From positions 19,220,001-19,284,000 of the forward strand of contig OX597842.1 in NCBI GenBank assembly GCA_951406725.2: DNA of 64,000 nucleotides, in the 5' to 3' direction. Under the pieces are notes generated by a model. It ran no database searches and was not told the origin of the DNA. It saw only the letters and a program-made list of their open reading frames with translations. This DNA is from Octopus vulgaris (lineage: Eukaryota). This document shows positions 12,419 through 57,113 of this stretch, one piece after another; the first letter of the stretch is position 1, and each line of letters opens with the position of its first letter. The translations under genes and the position numbers were made by a program.

Positions 12419-12518
12419 NNNNNNNNNNNNNNNNNNNNNNNNNNNNNNNNNNNNNNNNNNNNNNNNNNNNNNNNNNNNNNNNNNNNNNNNNNNNNNNNNN
12501 NNNNNNNNNNNNNNNNNN
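12419..12518. other. Assembly gap (100 N)
   Basis: N run. Confidence 1.
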
Positions 12519-14328: not shown

Positions 14329-17300
14329 ATCATCATCATCATCATCATCATTTAGCGTCCGTTTTCCATGCTAGCATGGGTTGGACGGTTCTGCTGGGGT
14401 CTGTGAAGCCAGAAGGCTTCATCAGGCCCAGTCAAATCTGGCAGTGTTTCTACGGCTGGATGCCCTTCCTAACGCCAACCACTCCGTGAGTGTAGTGGGT
14501 GCTTTTTACGTGCCACCCGCACTGGTGCCAGCCAGAGCTGGCAAACGGCCACGAACGGATGGTGTTTTTTATGTGCCACCGGCACGAGGGCCAGGCGAGG
14601 CTGGCAACGAACACGAAACGGGGCGGTGCTGGCAACGGTCGCGAAACGGAAGGTTCTCTTACATGCCACCGGCACTGGTAACACATCTGCAATTTCCATT
14701 GATCGATTTCCATTGATCGATTTCGATTCTGATCCTCACTTGCCTCAATGGGTCTTCACAAGCAGAGTTTCGACATGCCACCGGCACTGGTAGCACATCC
14801 GCAATTTCCATTGATCGATTTCGATTCTGATCCTCACTTGCCTCAACACGTCTTCACAAGTAGAGTTTTGTGTCCCAAGAAGGGAAGGTATGCATACGTA
14901 GGATGGCTCCATCCCATGTAGAAGGCCACGGGTTGTGGACTCACTTGTCCTGCCGGGTCTTCTCGCGCACAGCACACTTCCAGAGGTCTCGGTCTCTAGT
15001 CATTTCCTCGGTGAGACCTAAAGTTCGAAGGTCGTGCTTCACCACCTCGTCCCAGGTTTTCCTGGGTCTGCCTCTTCCACAGGTTCCCTCAACCGCTAGG
15101 GTGTGGCACTTTTTCACACAACTATCTTCATCCATTCTCGCCACATGACCATACCAGCGCAAACGTCTCTCTTGCACACCACAACTGATGCTTCTTAGGT
15201 CCAGCTTTTCTCTCAAGGTACTTACACTCTGCCGAGTGTGAGTACTGGCATTACACATCCATCGGAGCATACTGGCTTCATTTCTAGCGAGCTTACGCAT
15301 ATCCTCAGCAGTCACGGCCCATGTTTCACTGCCATGTAGCATGGCTGTTCGTACACACGCATCATACAGTCTGCCTTTCACTCTGTGCGAGAGGCCTTTT
15401 GTCACCAGCAGAGGTAAGAGCTCTCTGAACTTTGCCCAAGCTATTCTTACTCTAGCAGTTACACTTTCAGCACACCCGCCCCCGCTGCTGACTTGGTCAC
15501 CTAGGTAACGGAAACTATCAACTATTTCTAGTTTTTCTCCCTGGAAAGTGACAGAAGTTGGTCTCAGAGCATTTTCAGTGTTTATTGTTCCTGAGCATCT
15601 GCCACATACAAAAACCATCTTCCTAGTTAGCCTTCCTTTGACATTGCTGCATCTCTTATGTGTCCATAGCTTACACTTGGAGCATCTTATAGAGTTTCTA
15701 CCTACACCTTTTCTACAGATCGAGCAGGGCCATCTACCTGAAGGTGTTTGTGATTTGTCTACCTTCCTACTGATTACGACTTTGGTTTTAGCTAGATTGA
15801 CTCTGAGGCCCTTCGATTCTAATCCTTGTTTCCACACCTGAAACTTCTCCTCCAGTTCTGATAGCGACTCAGCAATTAGAGCAAGGTCATCAGCATAGAG
15901 GAGCTCCCAAGGGCATCCTGTCTTGAATTCCTCCGTTATTGCCTGGAGGACTATGATAAATAGGAGGGGGCTGAGTACTGAGCCTTGGTGGACCCCTACC
16001 TCTACCCGGAATTCTTCACTGTACTCATTTCCAACCCTCACCCTACTAGCGGCGTCCCTATACATGGCCCGCACAGCTCTCACTAACCATTCATCTATCC
16101 CTAGTTTTCTCATTGCCCACCAGATAAGGGATCGGGGGACCCTGTCGAAGGCTTTCTCCATGTCAACAAAAGCCAGGTACAGGGGCTTATCTTTGGCTAG
16201 GTATTTCTCCTGCAGCTGCCTTACCAGGAATATAGCATCAGTAGTACTTTTCCCTGGCACAAACCCAAACTGCATCTCATCTAAACTAACTCTCTCTCTA
16301 ATTAGTTGGGCTATGACCCTCTCCGTAACCTTCATCACCTGGTCCAACAGCTTGATACCTCTGTAGTTGTTTGTATCTAGGGCATCACCTTTACCTTTGT
16401 AGCAGTTGACTATTATACTGCTACACCAGTCATTGGGTATGACCCCTTTGTGTATCACCTGATTAACTATATGGGTGACTAGGCTATAGCCGACACTACC
16501 AGACATTTTGAGCATCTCTGCAGTGATTCCTGATGGGCCTGGGGCTTTCCCTGTCTTCATGCTTCTAATTGCCTTAGCTACCACAGAACTATCAACTCGG
16601 ATAGCTGGTCCCTCTGTTGGGTCAACATTCGGCAGACTCTCTTTATCCCATTCATTTTCTTCATTCAGCAACCTTTCATAGTGGCATCTCCAAACCTCTC
16701 TCTTTGCATCCTCATTTAGCGCAAGTGAACCATCTTCCATGCGAACACACTTCTCTCCTACCACATCACGATTCTCTCTCACACACTGTCTTGCAACACG
16801 AAACACCTCCAGTCTTTGGTCCTCACGGCGCAGAACATTGGCAAATTTTTTCTTATCTGCTTCCCCTCTGGCTAAATAAACCTGTCTCCTAGCTTCTCTT
16901 TTGGCAGTCTGATACAATTCCCTGCTACCCCCATTTTTCCAGACCTTCCAAGCCTGTCTCTTTTCTCTAATAGCCCTGTCTACAATATTGTTCCACCACC
17001 ACGTTATTCTAGGTCGAGAGGGGACTTTGCACCAGCCACAGATCTGGTCAGTGGCTCTCAGCAGGTTGTCCCTTAGAAACGTCCAGCTGTCTTCTACCCC
17101 CTGTGATGCTCTATCCCCTTCTACTTCGTCAGAGGCTTCAAGTAATATGTCCCTAAATCTCTGTCCATTTGCAGGATCTTTAAGCTTCCAGATCCTTCTT
17201 CTCCATATTTGTCGTCTTCTGGTTGTCCTCCTAGTCCTGATCCTAAAGTCACTAACTACCAGTCTATGTTGTGGGGTACATTCTTCACCTGGGAAGGTTT

Positions 17301-17930
17301 TGGCATTTATAAGCAGCCATCTCTCCCTTTGCCTTGTAAGGATGTAGTCAATTTGGCTGGTATGTTGGCCCGATTGGTAAGTGACTAGGTGGCTGGTAGG
17401 TTTCCTGAAGTTAGTGTTGCAAATCATAAGATTATTTGCATCGCAGAACTCCAGCAGCCTGGTTCCTTCCTCGTTGCGGGAGCCATAGCCGTAGCCTCCA
17501 TGTACGCCATGGAAGCCCCCAGCATGTCGTCCAACGTGACCATTGAAGTCACCAGCCACAAAGATAAGGTCTCTGTCGTTCGTCAATGAGGTAGTCTGCA
17601 GTAGAGTGTCATAGAATCGGTCTTTCTGTCCATCGGGTAGCCCCGACTGAGGAGCATAGGCTGATATAATGGTTGCTAAACTATGATGAAGCACTAATCT
17701 AATCTTAAGTATTCTGTCACTTACTCTGATTACCTCAATTACTTTATCTACCCATTTCTCAGCGATAAGTATACCCACGCCACCAACCCCGTCAGTATTC
17801 CCTGCCCAGAAAATCTTGTACCTGCGTTCCTTGCCTGTGAGGAACCTAGCTGATCCTCCTCTCCACCTTATTTCTTGCATGCAACATATATCCACACATC
17901 TCCGTTCAAGCATCTCGACTATCTCACCAG
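14329..17930 (-). mobile_element. RTE-clade LINE, slightly 5'-truncated, with (GAT)n tail, inserted in (TA)n
   Basis: Single APE+RT ORF, ~600-bp 3' UTR with internal tandem repeats, (CAT)n on the + strand. Confidence 0.95.
14941..17930 (-). CDS. RTE ORF: AP endonuclease + reverse transcriptase + PHD-like zinc finger, uninterrupted for ~995 codons
   Basis: Motifs [37 protein letters not shown] and LLYADD. The first ~23 aa of the computed ORF come from microsatellite. Confidence 0.95.
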
Positions 17931-17982
17931 ATATATATATATATACATATATATACATATATATATATACATATATATATAC

Positions 17983-18031
<49 letters not shown>

Positions 18032-18282
18032 CATATATATATACATATATATATATATATACATATTTATACATACAGACCTTGTTCGAAGGTTATATGG
18101 ATACAGTTTGTGTATCAAATAGCTAACTTAAGGCGATGGCCTCATGGAGCTAATAAGCGGACAGCTTTTTTCTTATTTTTATAAGAATGCCATATTAGTA
18201 TGGCGATAACTATTATTTTCCGGGAACGCTGCCGCTGTTCTCTTTTAGAGAGACTTAGTAATTTTAATATTTCTATTATATA

Positions 18283-26321: not shown

Positions 26322-27177
26322 GTTAGCGAATACATTTATATTTGTGTATATAGATATGTATATATACGTATGTGTGTGTTATATGTATATGATATATACA
26401 TACAGTTTAGTGCCCCAAATTTCGTTTCTTCATAACTGATGATTCATATTATTTTAAATAAAACTTGCTGCAAGACTCCCTTTTCTACCCCACAAAAAAA
26501 CCACCCTTTCTTTAAATTTTTTTCCCCGACACAAATCCCGCTTTTCGGTTAAGGGAAATACGAATCTGCAAAAAGATTGGCAAAAATCGGCATTTTTAAA
26601 TTACCCCCACCCCTATTTCCTTCATTCTTTACTTTTTTCACAATTTTATTTTCAGAATTTGCGGGAAAATACGGAGATGATGATTCGGACAAAAATTTCA
26701 AAACATTTCTGTAGTTAGGGTTAGGGTTAGTGTTGGGGAAAAAAAGGCAAAGTTGAAGAAATTTGGAGGGGGTAGAAATTCTACGGCCGATTTTTTGGCA
26801 ATTTTCCGGAACCTCCGTGTCCGAAATCGGGGGGTTTTTGGCAAAAAAATTCTTTAAATAAACAAATTTATGAGAAAATGGTGGTGGTGGTGGGAGGACT
26901 CTTTCGAAAGTTGCTCATTTCCTTGTGTGAGAGTGTATATATATATATATGTGAGAGTGTATATATATATATATGTGTGTGTGTGTTTATATGTATATAT
27001 ATATATGTGTGTGTCTGTGGGTACAGGTATGATATGAACCTCATTTATTTACTCCTCTCCAACTTCATTCCACCTGTTTATTAATCTGATTCTTTCTCTT
27101 TTTTTGAAATTTTTCATTTTTGCCCCCCCCCTCCACTTGATGCCATCTTTAATGTCTTTATTGTTTATCTATTTCAG

Positions 27178-27788
27178 GTAACTCAGCGAAACAATGATGG
27201 TGGGACACCTCTACATCTTGCCTCTTATCATGGACACACAGACACAGCTAAACTTCTCCTACAACAAAATGGCACTGATGTGAGGGTGGTGACCAACAAT
27301 GGTTCGACACCGCTACATCTTGCCTCACTTCAGGGACACACAGACACAGCTAAACTTCTCCTACAACAAAATGGCACTGATGTGAGGGTGGTGACCAAAT
27401 ATGGTTGGACACCTCTACATCTTGCCTCACTTCATGGACACACAGACACAGCTAAACTTCTCCTACAACAAAATGGCACTGATGTGAGGGTGGTGACAAA
27501 TATGGTTGCACACCTCTACATCTTGCCTCACTTCATGGACACACAGACACAGCTAAACTTCTCCTACAACAGAATGGCACTGATGTGAGGGTGGTGACCA
27601 AATATGGTCGGACACCTCTACATCTTGCCTGTTGGGATGGACACACAGACACAGCTAAACTTCTCCTACAACAAAATGGCACTGATGTGAGGGTGGTGAC
27701 CAAATATGGTCGGACACCTCTACATCTTGCCTGTTGGGATGGACACACAGACACAGCTAAACTTCTCCTACAACAAAATGGCATCGAT
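27178..27788 (+). repeat. 102-bp coding tandem repeat, six units
   Basis: Units start at 27178, 27280, 27382, 27484, 27585 and 27687. Confidence 0.95.
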
Positions 27789-49381: not shown

Positions 49382-50142
49382 CTCAAAAACACCTTAATTG
49401 ACAGACATTACCCAACTCAACTCATAGAGGATGGGATCAGACGTGCAACAGAAATCAACATAGAAACTTTAAGAAAAGTTCAACACAACAACACACCTTC
49501 CCCGAAAATACTACCTTACATATCTACATACAACCCCAGAAACAAAGAAGCTTTCACCATCATCACCCAGAATTTACCAATACTTCATAAAAACCCCAAA
49601 TTAAAGGAAATTCTAAACATACACCAAATCATTAAAAGCTACAAACAGCCTAAATCACTTAAAAGATTCTCACAAAGGCAAAATTGTCTTCTAAAATTAC
49701 GGATGCAAAAGTAAAAAAATGTGGTAGATCGAACTGTGCAACATGTCCTAACCTATTGGAAGGATCAGAATTCTTCTTTAAAGAGGGACAGAAATTCAAG
49801 ATCAAATCTAACTTTACTTGTGCCTCTGAAAACATAATTTATGTCATTAAATGCTCGGGCTGCCACCAAGACTACGTGGGGTCCACGGGACTATCACTCA
49901 GACGTAGATGCACACTGCATCGACAACAGATTGCATTCCCAGAATATAGAATGATACCTTTTAGTGAGCATATTGAGAAATGCGCAAAGCAACTACAACC
50001 ACAATTTTTAATCTTTCCATTTTACCAATGTGCTTTCGGATCATCATCACAAATTAGACTAAATAAGGAAACATTCTTCATTGAAAAGTACAAACCCAGA
50101 CTCAACTATCCGAACTCAATAATACAGAGAAATTCACACTAA
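49382..50142 (+). pseudogene. Penelope-like element 3' fragment: RT thumb/linker + GIY-YIG endonuclease, one frameshift near 49668
   Basis: DRHYPTQLI, LPYISTYNP, CGRSNCATC and NIIYVIKCSGCHQDYVGST..LRRR..LH. Confidence 0.9.
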
Positions 50143-50270
50143 AGGAAAAAAATTTTTTTAAGCGATTATCTCCCTTACACCGGAAGAAATCACTCACTAC
50201 TTTCCCTTATTTAGAACTCTCCGTAGCAAAAATACAAGGATTACGTTATTAAAAATAAACATTAAGTCAC

Positions 50271-50309
50271 AAGAAATTTGAAGAGCTAACTGCGAAACCG
50301 GTATTTCTT
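50271..50309 (+). ncRNA. Minimal hammerhead variant downstream of the Penelope ORF
   Basis: AAGAAA-T-TTGAAGA-GC-TAACT-GC-GAAA-CCGG-TA-TTTCTT; the core has a C-to-T change. Confidence 0.5.
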
Positions 50310-50440
50310 TAAAAATTATAAAATTATGTCATTTTAAGGAGGGAAAAAAATTTTTCCAATATTCTCCAGACATTTTGACGCAAATATATATATTTTTTAA
50401 CATTTAAGCCTTCTGTCGTTTCTTCACTCTTTACTATTTT

Positions 50441-50473
<33 letters not shown>

Positions 50474-50626
50474 GTATATTCAAAACGTGCATACACGCAA
50501 CAAAACACACACATGACCAGATACACATCTGCACGTAAAACTGAAATATATATAAGTTCACACATATCCACCAATTTATCAATCTGACTATATATATATA
50601 TATATATGTATTTTTTTTATAGAAGG

Positions 50627-50677
50627 AGCTTCTACAGGACTAGAACTGTTTCATTCAAAAGAAATCATCAGGAAGCT
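50627..50677 (-). ncRNA. Type I hammerhead ribozyme at the left end of the palindrome
   Basis: Minus strand: AGCTTC-CTGATGA-TTTCTTTTGAAT-GAAA-CAG-TTCTAGTC-CTG-TA-GAAGCT. Confidence 0.8.
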
Positions 50678-51135
50678 TGGTGACAAGAATAGTTTTGGCA
50701 TTTATACATTTAGGCAGATTTAAAGTGGTGGTGGTAGTGGACTTTTTGGGGTCGGCATGGGGCAGACTGTCTTTCTTAGGGGAGTGGTCAAAAGAATCGG
50801 TGATAAAGTAGATAAAAGAATAAATAGAATAATAGAATAGAGTTTTAGGTAAATAAGAAGACTATCACTCATATATATATATATATATACATATACACAC
50901 ATACATACATATATATATATGCACCCATATACATACATATACGTACACACCCATACACATACATACACACATACATATATCCATACACTCACATATATAT
51001 ATATATATATATATACAAATACACACACATACATGCCAACATGCAAGCACACGCACACATATCTACACACATATATAAAAAAAGAATATACACCCCCATA
51101 CACACACGCTCACATATATATATACATACATATAT

Positions 51136-51168
<33 letters not shown>

Positions 51169-51861
51169 CATATATACATATATATACATATGTATATACA
51201 TGCACACATATACACACACATTTCTTCCCTTATTTTATTTTATTTTTATTTTGACCTCGACCTACCAGGCCGGCACTGAAGTAAGACCCTCCTGAGGGAG
51301 CTAGCCTGCCTAAAAAAACCATTTATTGCCCCTCTCCCTTCCTTTCTAACTTTCTTCCCACTGATACGAACACGAACACTCACACACGCACACACACTCA
51401 CACGCACACTCATACACATACACAAACGCACGTGTTCTATGTATACACATACATATACACACACAAGTACACATATTCATACATACATAAGTGTACCGAC
51501 TTTCACATAAACGTACACATAACTATGTACACACAAAACCACATATATAAATGTACTTCAGTACACATAAACACACATGAACATCTGCCCGCATATATAG
51601 ACGCATATGCCTATATACAGACATTTGTGCATATAAACATACATACGCATATATATGCATCCATACGCTTTTAAGTACATATTAGCACACCTGCAAGCAT
51701 ACACGTGTACATAAAAGCATACCTACATATACCTACCTACACACATACATATACATACATGCACGTATATACACATACGTACACGTACCTACAAATTCAT
51801 ATCTACACGCATACACATACTTACATCTATAAACACACAGAAAACTAGTCCATATATATAC

Positions 51862-51914
<53 letters not shown>

Positions 51915-52329
51915 TACACATACGTATATACCTACATATACATACACATATATACTTACACCAGTCATATACATACCTACATACACATACATACATATAT
52001 ATAAACACATGCACATACTAATACACATACGCATATCTACGCACATACACGCACACATATCTATCTACATATATAAAAAAGAAACCCAACAAGTCCATAC
52101 ATATACACACATACATATACATATACACGTACATACATACACATACATATACACATATATACCCATACATATATACATACATATACACATACACATATAC
52201 ATATATATATATATATACACATATATATACATACACACACATACATATACGTCCATACGCACAACATATACATACATACATCCACACTGAGGTATACAGG
52301 CATATACACACACATATATACTCATATAT

Positions 52330-52786
52330 CAGCACCATCATCATCATCATCATCGTTTAACGTCCGTTTTCCGCGCTAGCACGGGTTGGACGGTTTGACC
52401 GGGGTCTGGGGAGCCAGGGGCTGCCCCAGGCTCCAGTCTGGTCTGGCAGTGTTTCTACAGCTGGATGCCCTTCCTAACGCCAACCACTCCGCGAGTGTAG
52501 TGGGTGCTTTTCACGTGCCACCTGCATAGGTGCCAGAGGGGTCTGGCATCGGCCACGATCGGTTGGTGCTTTTTTATGTGCTACCGGCACAGAAGCCAGT
52601 CAAGGCGGTGCTGGCATCGGCCACGTTCGGATGGTGCTGGTGGGGTTGGCATCAGTCCCGTTCGGATGGAGCTTTTTATGTGCCACCGGCACAGAAGCCA
52701 GTGGAGGCTGCACTGGCAACGGCCACATTCGGATGGTGCTGGCGGGGTTGGCATCGGTCACGTTTGGTTGGAGCTTTTTATGTGCC
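52330..52786 (-). mobile_element. RTE-3'-end element inserted only in the left palindrome arm
   Basis: (CAT)n + CGTTTAACGTCCGTTTTCC.. core; the right arm has only (TA)n at ~54950-54975. Confidence 0.85.
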
Positions 52787-54941
52787 ATATATATGTATAT
52801 ATACACACGAACGCACATATATACACCAATACACATACGCATACATAAATGTATACATATGTATATACATATGCATACACATATACACACACACACGCGC
52901 ATCTATATATACATAAATACATACATGCATACAAACATATACATATATACATACATGCATACTCAAATAATAAATATATATACGTGCAATTACCCATACT
53001 TACACATACATATACGCGCGCCTGTACACATACATACAGATACATACATATAAACATACACATATATACATATTTACACATATACACATATATACATACA
53101 TACATATACACATATATCTACATACATACATATACATAAAACACACAAGCATACATATATATATATCAATATACATATATATACACATATATATACATAT
53201 ATAAATATACATACATATGTAAATACACGTACACACATACATACGTATATTCATACTTACACCCATACATATATATACATATACATGTGTACTTATACAC
53301 ACCCATAAACATATACACAAGCATATACCTACACGTAAATATATACCCGTATACACACAGACTCATACACTAGTACATACACACACATATATGTACACAC
53401 ATATGCACACACACATATATACAAATACACAGATACATATACATACATACATACATACACATACATACATATCCATAAATACATATATGTGCATATACAT
53501 ACACATACATCTACATACACATATATATACGCACACACACATATATACATCTATATATATAAATATATACATATACACACTCATATATATACACATGCAG
53601 AACCATGTATACATATACACATGCATACGTATGCACGCCTTCACATACACATGTACATACACTGTAGCACATACATTCACATACAGATACGTATATGCAC
53701 TCGTATACATATATGTACGCACACGCACATATGCCTACGCCCATATATATGTGAATAGTCTTAGGAGAGAAGGTAATTGGGGGTGCTGAGGGAACGGTGG
53801 GGGTGGGGTGGGGGTGTCGTCAATCGGGTTGCCGGGTGGGTCTGTAGTTTTTGTATTTTGCATAAGTTTTGTGCAAGATCTCGGAACACTCCCCAAATTG
53901 TATGCACAAAGTTTATGCAAAATACAAAAACTACAGACCCACCCGGCAACCCGATTGACGACACCCCCACCCCCACCCCCACCGTTCCCTCAGCACCCCA
54001 ATTACCTTCTCTCCTAAGACTATTCACATATATATGGGCGTAGGCATATGTGCGTGTGCGTACATATATGTATACGAGTGCATATACGTATCTGTATGTG
54101 AATGTATGTGCTACAGTGTATGTACATGTGTATGTGAAGGCGTGATACGTATGCATGTGTATATGTATACATGGTTCTGCATGTGTATATATATGAGTGT
54201 GTATATGTATATATTTATATATATAGATGTATATATGTGTGTGTGCGTATATATATGTGTATGTAGATGTATGTGTATGTATATGCACATATATGTATTT
54301 ATGGATATGTATGTATGTGTATGTATGTATGTATGTATATGTATGTGTGTATTTGTATATATGTTTGTGTGCATATGTGTGTACATATATGTGTGTGTAT
54401 GTACTAGTGTATGATTCTGTGTGTATACAGGTATATATTTACGTGTAGGTATATGCTTGTGTATATGTGTATGGGTGTGTATATGTATATATATGTATGG
54501 GTGTAAGTATGAATATACGTATGTATGTGTGTACGTGTATTTACATATGTATGTATATTTATATATGTATATATATGTGTATATATATATGTATATTGAT
54601 ATAGATATACGTACGCTTGTGTGTTTTATGTATATGTATGTATGTAGATATATGTGTATATGTATGTATGTATATATGTGTATATGTGTAAATATGTATA
54701 TATGTGTATGTTTATATGTATGTATCTGTATGTATGTGTACAGGCGCGCGTATATGTATGTGTAAGTATGGGTAATTGCACGTATATATATTTATTATTT
54801 GAGTATGCATGTATGTATATATGTATATGTTTGTATGCATGTATGTATTTATGTATATATAGATGCGCGTGTGTATGTGTATGCATATGTATATACATAT
54901 GTATACATTTATGTATGCATATGTGTATATATGTGTGCGTT

Positions 54942-54974
<33 letters not shown>

Positions 54975-55079
54975 GAGTATATATGTGTGTGTATATGCCT
55001 GTATACCTCAGTGTGGATGTATGTATGTATATGGGTGTGCGTATGGACGTATATGTATGTGTATGTATATGTGTGTGTA

Positions 55080-55132
<53 letters not shown>

Positions 55133-55449
55133 ATGTGTATATGTATGTATATATGTATGGGTATATATATGTATATGTATGTGTTTGTATGTACGTGTAT
55201 ATGTATATGTATGTGTGTATATGTATGAACTTGTTGGGTTTCTTTTTTATATATGTAGATAGATATGTGTGCGTGTATGTGCGTAGATATGCGTATGTGT
55301 ATTAGTATGTGCATGTGTTTATATATATGTATGTATATGTATAGATATATATGGATGTATGTGTATGTAGGTATGTATATGACTGGTGTAAGTATATATG
55401 TGTATGTATATGTAGGTATATACGTATGTGTATGTGTGTATATGTGTGT

Positions 55450-55495
<46 letters not shown>

Positions 55496-56340
55496 GTATA
55501 TATATGGACTAGTTTTCTGTGTGTTTATAGATGTAAGTATGTGTATGCGTGTAGATATGAATTTGTAGGTACGTGTACGTATGTGTATATACGTGCATGT
55601 ATGTATATGTATGTGTGTAGGTAGGTATATGTAGGTATGCTTTTATGTACACGTGTATGCTTGCAGGTGTGCTAATATGTACTTAAAAGCGTATGGATGC
55701 GTATATATGCGTATGTATGTTTATATGCACAAATGTCTGTATATAGGCATATGCGTCTATATATGCGGGCAGATGTTCATGTGTGTTTATGTGTACTGAA
55801 GTACATTTATATATGTGGTTTTGTGTGTACATAGTTATGTGTACGTTTATGTGAAAGTCGGTACACTTATGTATGTATGAATATGTGTACTTGTGTGTGT
55901 ATAGGTATGTGTATACATAGAACACGTGCGTTTGTGTATGTGTATGAGTGTGCGTGTGAGTGTGTGTGCGTGTGTGAGTGTTTGTGTTCGTATCAGTGGG
56001 AAGAAAGATAGAAAGGAAGGGAGAGGGGCAATAAATGGTTTTTTTAGGCAGGCTAGCTCCCTTGGGAAGGTCTTACTTCAGTGCCGGCCTGGTAGGTCGA
56101 GGTCAAAATAAAAATAATAATAAAATAAAATAAGGGAAGAAATGTGTGTGTATATGTGTGCATGTATATACATATGTATATATATATGTATATATATATA
56201 TATATATGTGTGTGTGTATATATGTGTGTATATATATGTGAGCGTGTGTGTATGGGGGTGTATATTCTTTTTTTATATATATGTGTGTAGATATGTGTGC
56301 GTGTGCTTGCATGTTGGCATGTATGTGTGTGTGTATTTGT

Positions 56341-56374
<34 letters not shown>

Positions 56375-56443
56375 ATGTATGTGTATGGGTGTGTACGTAT
56401 ATGTATGTATATGGGTGCATATATATATATGTATGTATGTGTG

Positions 56444-56485
<42 letters not shown>

Positions 56486-56675
56486 TGATAGTCTTCTTAT
56501 TTACCTAAAACTCTATTCTATTATTCTATTTATTCTTTTATCTACTTTATCACTGATTCTTTTGACCACTCCCCTAAGAAAGACAGTCTGCTCCATGCCG
56601 ACCCCAAAAAGTCCACTACCACCACCACTTTAAATCTGCCTAAATGTATAAATGCCAAAACTATTCTTGTCACCA

Positions 56676-56726
56676 AGCTTCCTGATGATTTCTTTTGAAT
56701 GAAACAGTTCTAGTCTTGTAGAAGCT
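56676..56726 (+). ncRNA. Type I hammerhead ribozyme at the right end of the palindrome
   Basis: AGCTTC-CTGATGA-TTTCTTTTGAAT-GAAA-CAG-TTCTAGTC-TTG-TA-GAAGCT (G-U pair in stem III). Confidence 0.78.
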
Positions 56727-56874
56727 CCTTCTATAAAATAAATTAATTTACTCTGCTATGTATTGAGTACCTTATTTACTGTGGTTAACCCCGACTCAAC
56801 CCGGGACCTACATATATATATATGTATGTATATATATATACATACATATAAGTATATATATATATGTATGTATG

Positions 56875-57113
56875 TATATGAAAGAAAGTTTGAAAATGCA
56901 ATTTTAAAAGGTGTTTAAAAGGTGATAATTTCTTGTAGCTTTGATTATTATCGTTATTTTCTTTAATTGAAAAAAAGCAAAGCAAAACAAATACATGATT
57001 TGTGTACACATTTGGTGGCTAATGTGTTGTAATATGGATTACGGAATGTTTGAATTTGCAGCTGAAAGTAAACACCTTTAAAAATTGCGTTTTCAAACCT
57101 TCTTTCACATATA
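56875..57113. repeat. Small inverted-repeat element
   Basis: GAAAGAAAGTTTGAAAATGCAATTTTAAAAGGTGTTT versus AAACACCTTTAAAAATTGCGTTTTCAAACCTTCTTTC. Confidence 0.65.

Follow-up and report, generated by a model that had tools for sequence, protein, structure and literature searches.

Introduction

Penelope-like elements (PLEs) of the Hydra clade, which have a C-terminal endonuclease, appear to be the closest described relatives of the family treated here. Copies of this family form a 6-kb palindrome in a 64,000-nucleotide stretch of the Octopus vulgaris genome (assembly GCA_951406725.2, contig OX597842.1, positions 19,220,001 to 19,284,000, forward strand). This whole stretch is termed “the window”, and all positions below are counted from its first letter. 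In the available text of Craig et al. (2021, PMC8557442, section 11), the diagnostics of the Hydra clade are an RWK motif, replacement of DKG by DKT, a CxCx5C linker, the absence of CCHH, and CxxC and CxH motifs around conserved E and N residues; (TA)n targeting and canonical hammerhead ribozymes are also described there. The octopus family resembles the clade in its RWK-type, DKT, CxCx5C, CxxC and CxH motifs, in lacking CCHH, and in its (TA)n targets. Its hammerhead, like those of the clade, is of canonical type I, with U.U at the base of stem II (typical of those published in File S2 of the same work) and ACAG/CTGT in stem III. The supplement, as available, gives Hydra families of 1.1–3.0 kb, among them another octopus family, 2,507 bp long; the unit described here is ca. 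5.2 kb long and has a microsatellite 3′ untranslated region (UTR) of 2.0–3.7 kb.

Inverted 5′-truncated copies and one-sided tails have already been described for PLEs (PMC8557442; PMC3846280), and such an inverted copy is listed for Penelope-13_HM of the Hydra clade (PMC8557442). The endonuclease-positive (EN+) PLEs with an inverted pseudo-long terminal repeat (pLTR) and tail (Arkhipova et al. 2013, PMC3846280; Craig et al. 2021, Fig. 2 legend) share head-to-head copies, palindromic junctions and a one-ended tail with the octopus family. Pen1_Av (PMC3846280) features a spacer of 0.9–1.5 kb before its 3′ pLTR, resembling the octopus UTR; such spacers are unrelated captured DNA, whereas the octopus UTR is homologous across copies. 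The tail is ca. 70 bp long in the octopus family, compared to the 30–40 bp described for PLEs in the accessible parts of PMC8557442, where the origin of tandem and inverted PLE insertions is stated to be undefined. The Poseidon protein PAc, studied in vitro (Frangieh et al. 2024, PMC11167929), comes from a different clade and shares an AT-rich target with the octopus family. It cuts and extends both target strands from an uncleaved RNA template, with two reverse-transcription start sites that bound the tail; in the available text of that paper, the two sites are not connected to inverted insertions. Finally, non-LTR retrozymes (bioRxiv 10.64898/2026.07.22.740005) have a type I hammerhead and a PLE origin in common with the locus. 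As described in the available text, they are short, tandem and non-coding, whereas the octopus palindrome joins two truncated copies of an autonomous element in inverted orientation.

Structure and identity of the palindrome

The palindrome (50610-56812) almost certainly consists of two 5′-truncated copies of an autonomous Hydra-clade PLE, placed head to head in (TA)n, as judged from comparison with other copies in the genome. The left arm (50610-53875, minus strand) comprises the end of the open reading frame (ORF), the 3′ UTR and a hammerhead, and the right arm occupies 53874-56812 (plus strand). Arm length is ca. 2.9 kb, and the orientation is inverted. The arms meet at a 2-nt microhomology (CA, 53874-53875), next to which lies a 27-bp spacer (53876-53902, plus strand) of coding sequence that is present in the right arm only. 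Global alignment of the arms yielded 2,771 columns with 40 substitutions, 34 of them arm-internal (ca. 1.2%), and 26 gaps, chiefly microsatellite length changes, along with one 453-bp insertion in the left arm (ca. 52331-52785). No N is found in the region, the sole N run of the window being at 12419-12518. On the strength of the alignment, the spacer and the lack of N, the 6-kb palindrome proposed in a first-pass annotation of the window is real. The substitutions, tract-length differences and arm-specific insertion noted there were recovered, as were the 27-bp spacer and the central G-run clusters (ca. 53780-53815, with C-runs as their mirror image). The right boundary, placed at 56737, was too short: a tail of ca. 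70 bp (56744-56812, plus strand), which leads into the ORF start in full-length copies, continues the element to ca. 56812, and the left end has no such tail. Like other family ends, those of the palindrome run into microsatellites, (TA)n on the left (50591-50608) and (TA)n/(TATG)n on the right (56813-56880). A target-site duplication is unreadable within (TA)n.

Read outward from the center, the right arm contains the final 27 codons of the PLE ORF with its stop (53875-53958, plus strand), i.e. the C-terminus of the endonuclease region as identified from the ORF in other copies. A 3′ UTR of ca. 2.7 kb follows (53959-56675, plus strand), with 80% purine/pyrimidine alternation (TA/TG on the RNA strand). 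The unique anchors previously noted among the repeats are indeed mirrored islands, although the central one is partly coding (53875-53958). One non-repetitive UTR island, at 51245-51375 (minus strand) with its mirror at 55984-56112, is found family-wide. When it was searched for a second ribozyme or conserved fold, 28 non-redundant copies gave a consensus energy of −1.8 (sense) and no covariation, and this candidate was rejected.

The family was searched across the 2.8-Gb genome. Its end sequence was located at 1,130 candidate places, and exact matches to a 35-mer of the end numbered 5,612 genome-wide (control, 0). The anchor search that had been advised thus returned many other copies, in which the sequence found at the palindrome's center does not turn back but continues upstream into an ORF. 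An intact ORF of 713 aa, with this UTR, hammerhead and tail downstream of it, is present in at least two copies (L160 and L161). A protein search of the genome gave 124 matches, and two of the copies that belong to the palindrome's family have open frames of 718 and 722 codons. In other copies, the stop-to-hammerhead distance is 2.0–3.7 kb and the purine/pyrimidine alternation is 69–82% (30 measurements), and the unique UTR islands recur across the genome. Because the same UTR follows the ORFs of other copies, what looked like scrambled CA/TA repeats in the arms is a 3′ UTR inherited with the element. The textbook order of an inverted truncated copy, a short pLTR with hammerhead and tail, ORF and UTR is seen at L067, and a tandem pair on contig C1 has a unit period of 5,193 bp. 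Many near-full-length ORF copies on different contigs have one common frame break (506-codon open frame), which suggests that a defective lineage was spread in trans.

The arms had been read initially as a non-coding, retrozyme-like element dependent on Penelope and integrated as an inverted dimer. The inverted dimer with outward-facing hammerheads was confirmed, as was the kinship with Penelope; the arms are not those of a non-coding element, being truncated copies of an autonomous PLE whose ORF is intact elsewhere. Mobilization in trans of a non-coding unit would agree with the type I hammerhead that ends a mostly non-coding arm, and with the fact that most genomic copies are non-coding stubs (34 of 42 pairs span 81–128 bp). 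It is very improbable nonetheless, since the center is ORF sequence and the same UTR lies downstream of intact ORFs; also, other copies extend beyond 53874. Retrozymes are defined in the available preprint text as tandem repeats with consensus lengths of 51–972 bp. The palindrome is instead linked to an ORF, and its ca. 2.9-kb inverted arms are not head-to-tail units of <1 kb with a hammerhead in each; among the first 100 exact ends listed, 28 of 31 neighbors within 7 kb likewise formed outward-facing pairs.

Nor is an assembly artefact, in which two haplotypes or a fold-back read were joined, a credible origin. Among the short-read contigs examined, none bridged the palindrome junction, an uninformative result that such an artefact would also produce. 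Against it, the arm ends differ in the family pattern, with the tail on one side, and the junction, the flanks (97%) and the LINE insert in one arm all recur at a second locus, L021. Loose ends of the head-to-head junction type were also found among contigs from independent public runs (16 in X16, 5 in X15 and 1 in X1), and those of the tail-less end type in contigs from other public runs.

Clade assignment

The encoded protein contains the motifs RWR, DKT, YRDD, CxCx5C (CNCPDKTTC), CxxC (CDLC) and CxH (CMH), and CCHH is absent; in 11 of 11 aligned relatives, RWK stands in place of RWR. In L160 and L161, a single ORF specifies a reverse transcriptase (RT; YRDD) and then a C-terminal endonuclease region with the pattern Y..YIG..F..R..H. 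The family thus combines the RWK-type and DKT motifs, the CxCx5C linker without CCHH, and CxxC/CxH with a canonical hammerhead near the 3′ end and (TA)n insertion. Hydra-clade elements are described as generally short (<3 kb), and the unit here is 5,193 bp; as the length is stated with “generally”, the long unit is counted as a difference and not as an exclusion. Thirty relatives are 31–41% identical at the protein level. By eye, the motifs of the protein match those of the printed Hydra-1_Obim protein; in the available text, both the hammerhead and the protein of that element differ from those of the octopus family. Two short family motifs were absent from the supplement text of PMC8557442 as searched, in which long sequences are incomplete. 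Atlas neighbors of the ORF protein featured GIY-YIG and RVT_1 at 0.96, a lead only.

Some results weigh against this assignment. Pfam gave no RT or GIY-YIG match in the family ORFs and five relatives, and a profile compared to PDB sequences gave no significant match. The putative domains were called from motifs, the alignment in PMC8557442 and the Atlas neighbors, and the clade from motifs, not a tree.

Hammerhead ribozymes

A motif scan of both strands of the window located one type I hammerhead motif with an intact core at each outer end of the palindrome, both facing outward. The left motif spans 50627-50677 (minus strand), with cleavage predicted after GUA (A at 50633), and the right one spans 56676-56726 (plus strand), with cleavage predicted after GUA (A at 56720) and one G.U pair in stem III. 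The layout features a stem I of 6 bp, the core CUGAUGA, a stem II of 3 bp on a U.U pair, a stem III of 4 bp with an 8-nt loop, and the GUA triplet. These conform to the type I hammerhead in having the CUGANGA/GAAA core, an NUH triplet and three stems, with variation confined to free positions. The hammerhead fold was calculated at −7.3 kcal/mol on the left (predicted minimum, −7.6 kcal/mol) and −5.1 kcal/mol on the right, which is ca. 3 kcal/mol above the predicted minimum of −8.2 kcal/mol. Neither was more stable than shuffled sequence (z of 0.44 and 0.14), and at the gathering score Rfam had no match within the window, hammerheads included. The description of these motifs as well formed therefore holds for their outward orientation and intact core, but stem II is short and rests on U.U, the fold is not the minimum and Rfam is silent.

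Across 196 ends, recurrent variants occurred at N7, in loops II and III, and outside stem I, and the core and stems were nearly invariant. Selecting the ends for their resemblance to the motif weakens this result without accounting for it; the pattern suggests constraint in the source elements. A loop III variant found in 41 of the 196 ends gives ACTAGT, a longer self-complementary word that, speculatively, could favor a dimeric ribozyme.

Indels at the predicted cleavage site were found in one arm of 13 of 42 pairs, affecting the tail arm in four and the tail-less arm in nine. They cluster at positions +1 and +4, compared to three indel columns across positions −28 to −5. When the end pattern was relaxed, 15 variants came up among the first 100 ends, and 11 of these were shorter. 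In all 13 variant ends with a listed partner, the partner end was intact (both arms variant, 0 of 13). Such indels may have arisen when RT crossed a cut template, or by quasi-palindrome templating (AGTTCTA/TAGAAGCT).

Insertion pattern of the family

Pairs were surveyed in the first 60 of 73 position-ordered clusters; 42 were paired by one script and two more (L104 and L106) by another. The resulting 44 outward-facing pairs had exactly one tail in 43 cases. The exception, L114, has two tails and a third, short tail-less end further out. Published EN+ PLE tails are termed “optional” or “often” one-sided in the texts available, which contrasts with this near-binary count. Over longer spans, no tail-tail outward pair was found among 100 listed tail ends and no outward pair of two tail-less ends among 100 tail-less ends, and a tail partner lay within 10 kb of 32 of 43 tail-less ends. 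At L110 and L118, a hammerhead end is joined to a tail-only piece; L095 and L096 together make a single 9.7-kb pair. Most insertions are tiny, as the span distribution given above attests. The inverted pair with one tail is the normal insertion form of the family, and the window palindrome is a long example of this normal product at an otherwise ordinary locus. The rule is not universal: 12 of the 60 loci had no partner end, six of them even when 10 kb more sequence was included, and the full-length copy L160 is tail-less at both outer ends.

At least six hammerhead subfamily variants coexist in the genome. In 24 of 25 pairs, both arms of the insertion bore the same marks; over 10,000 permutations, the mean was 7.3 matching pairs and the highest value 16.

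Mechanism of insertion

The observations are probably best explained as a whole by Hydra-clade PLE copies placed head to head via two-ended priming. The element's endonuclease would cut both strands of (TA)n, and reverse transcription would be primed on both ends of that one break, one per start site. The two cDNAs would share a transcript as template, or use sister transcripts, with one starting at the far edge of the tail and the other at its near edge; each would stop independently, and the two 3′ ends would be joined via microhomology. By analogy with Poseidon, it is reasonably likely that two primers act on one source, with two start sites that bound the tail.

That the two ends were primed independently by two unrelated transcripts is improbable. 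Such priming would allow arm lengths to vary independently, as they do. However, 24 of 25 pairs agree in subfamily despite the coexisting variants, which argues for a shared template, and the strict one-tail rule needs coupling between the ends.

A snap-back origin, in which the tail-primed cDNA folds and is copied back, the second arm is cut back by the endonuclease to the near tail edge, and later deletions make the arms unequal, is less easily dismissed but still rather unlikely. Self-priming has been proposed for head-to-head PLE palindromes in the accessible text of PMC3846280, and tails are attributed to endonuclease resolution in that of PMC8557442. The subfamily concordance suits a snap-back, and the window locus fits it exactly, with 27 additional nt in the tail arm, a 2-nt microhomology and a 27-nt loop. 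Given the 27-nt excess and 2-nt overlap, this locus alone is compatible with either a snap-back or two primers.

Evidence that separates them comes from the rest of the family. Either arm may be the longer one, which argues for two independent cDNAs. Among the small pairs, it was the tail arm in 12 and the tail-less arm in eight, with 22 equal; in 22 hand-picked larger loci, the figures were nine, nine and four, and the excess of the tail-less arm in the latter reached up to 3 kb. A long tail-less arm with no internal tail cannot template a tailed short arm, contrary to a simple snap-back. The pairing of hammerhead ends with tail-only pieces at L110 and L118 also favors independent cDNAs. So does the position of AGCT, the self-complementary word of stem I, at 13 of 18 readable mini-palindrome centers, five of which are loop-less AAGCTT. 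The one-armed cleavage-site indels point the same way, and the four found in tail arms were not copied into the other arm, contrary to what folding back would entail.

Some considerations detract from two-primer insertion. A deletion across the center of an initially symmetric fold-back palindrome could likewise shorten the tail arm; the subfamily concordance could stem from arm-to-arm conversion; and the supporting Poseidon biochemistry, being from a different clade, applies by analogy.

A tentative joint reading may be offered. Inverted insertion would be the default, with a paired enzyme priming both break ends from the two tail-bounding starts of a single RNA, such that every event has one tailed and one tail-less end. 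Indels 3′ of the scissile bond would be scars of RT crossing a ribozyme-cut template, and the kilobases of microsatellite would be cargo that seeds new (TA)n targets. If this is true, the one-arm indels are a genomic record of hammerhead cleavage in vivo.

In L1 twin priming, the second target strand primes a second cDNA, and an inversion joined by microhomology results; duplication of the 3′ end is not known from such inversions. In the octopus PLE, both primers would instead begin close to the 3′ end, which leaves the arms overlapping over nearly their whole length.

The strict long-end/short-end rule likely reflects the way in which these elements copy themselves into the two ends of a DNA break. 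With its thousands of young ends and their near-binary signature, the family separates two-primer from snap-back models, and the question is open to an existing type of assay. Each copy of this retrotransposon also spreads 2–4 kb of CA/TA microsatellite, and across an animal genome rich in microsatellites the family seeds thousands of palindromes. The literature covered, which excludes subscription journals and Repbase, yielded no account of this family or its long microsatellite UTR, of so strict an end rule, of indels at the cleavage site, of the conversion described below, or of twin priming in PLEs.

Later history and transcription of the locus

The left-arm insert (52331-52785, minus strand), which lies within a TA run, is the 3′ end of an unrelated long interspersed nuclear element (LINE) of the apurinic/apyrimidinic endonuclease (APE) type. 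It matches 14330-14600 at 84%, downstream of a LINE ORF at 14941-18066 in the same window. The near-complete APE-type LINE at 14330-18066 (minus strand) has a 1,041-codon open frame (RT, endonuclease and PHD-like finger), and a 3′ end of this type gave rise to the insert and to several other fragments in the window.

The duplicate palindrome L021 is located ca. 1 Mb away and shares its junction, insert and flanking sequence (97% over 3.4 kb) with the palindrome of the window. L021 and L153-L156 (contig C29, 18.23-18.26 Mb) constitute a segmental duplicate of the window region, with flanks 90–97% identical. When the palindrome was compared to L021 over 1,786 well-aligned columns, 12 sites (three of them adjacent) were common to both arms of one locus and none to the same arm across loci; 41 further sites were private. 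Comparison to outgroup copies placed derived states in both loci. This pattern points to arm-to-arm gene conversion after duplication in both palindromes, although polishing artefacts are a possible alternative source. With conversion, the identity of the arms would understate their age. The proposed order is that the LINE fragment entered the left arm, the locus was then duplicated ca. 1 Mb away, and sequence was subsequently exchanged between the arms of each copy by gene conversion.

Geometrically, transcription through the whole palindrome could yield an RNA that folds into a long hairpin, with a single hammerhead at the 3′ end. The earlier idea that the palindrome is a source of double-stranded RNA is unsupported. 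The family ORF copies (44 pieces) showed no A-to-I footprint, with 1.16 A>G and 1.71 T>C singletons per 1,000 bases. Contigs of presumed-RNA public runs contain the family; they are neither assignable to the palindrome locus nor informative about transcript ends.

Neighboring and sister elements

The 3′ end of a different PLE is found at 49663-50315 (plus strand), ending 300 bp to the left of the palindrome. It encodes a GIY-YIG region with a CX4CxxC linker and CCHH-type residues, and it has a minimal hammerhead at ca. 50278 with U at core position 3 and ACCGGT in stem III. Its GIY-YIG fragment (49663-50142) was considered as the palindrome's partner element and rejected, its motif set and hammerhead being different. 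A sister Hydra-like family (L178, 3951-7130; L179, 7065-8193) is more uniform, with 727-codon frames at dozens of places, 42% identity and its own hammerhead. It was rejected as the carrier of the Hydra-1_Obim hammerhead, from which its own differs; L179 likewise shows an outward pair. At L031-L033 (contig C2, 206.28-206.30 Mb), a family end is situated inside a tandem array with a period of ca. 8.5 kb. Elsewhere in the window, an ankyrin-repeat coding stretch (Pfam Ank) is located at 27085-27588 (plus strand).

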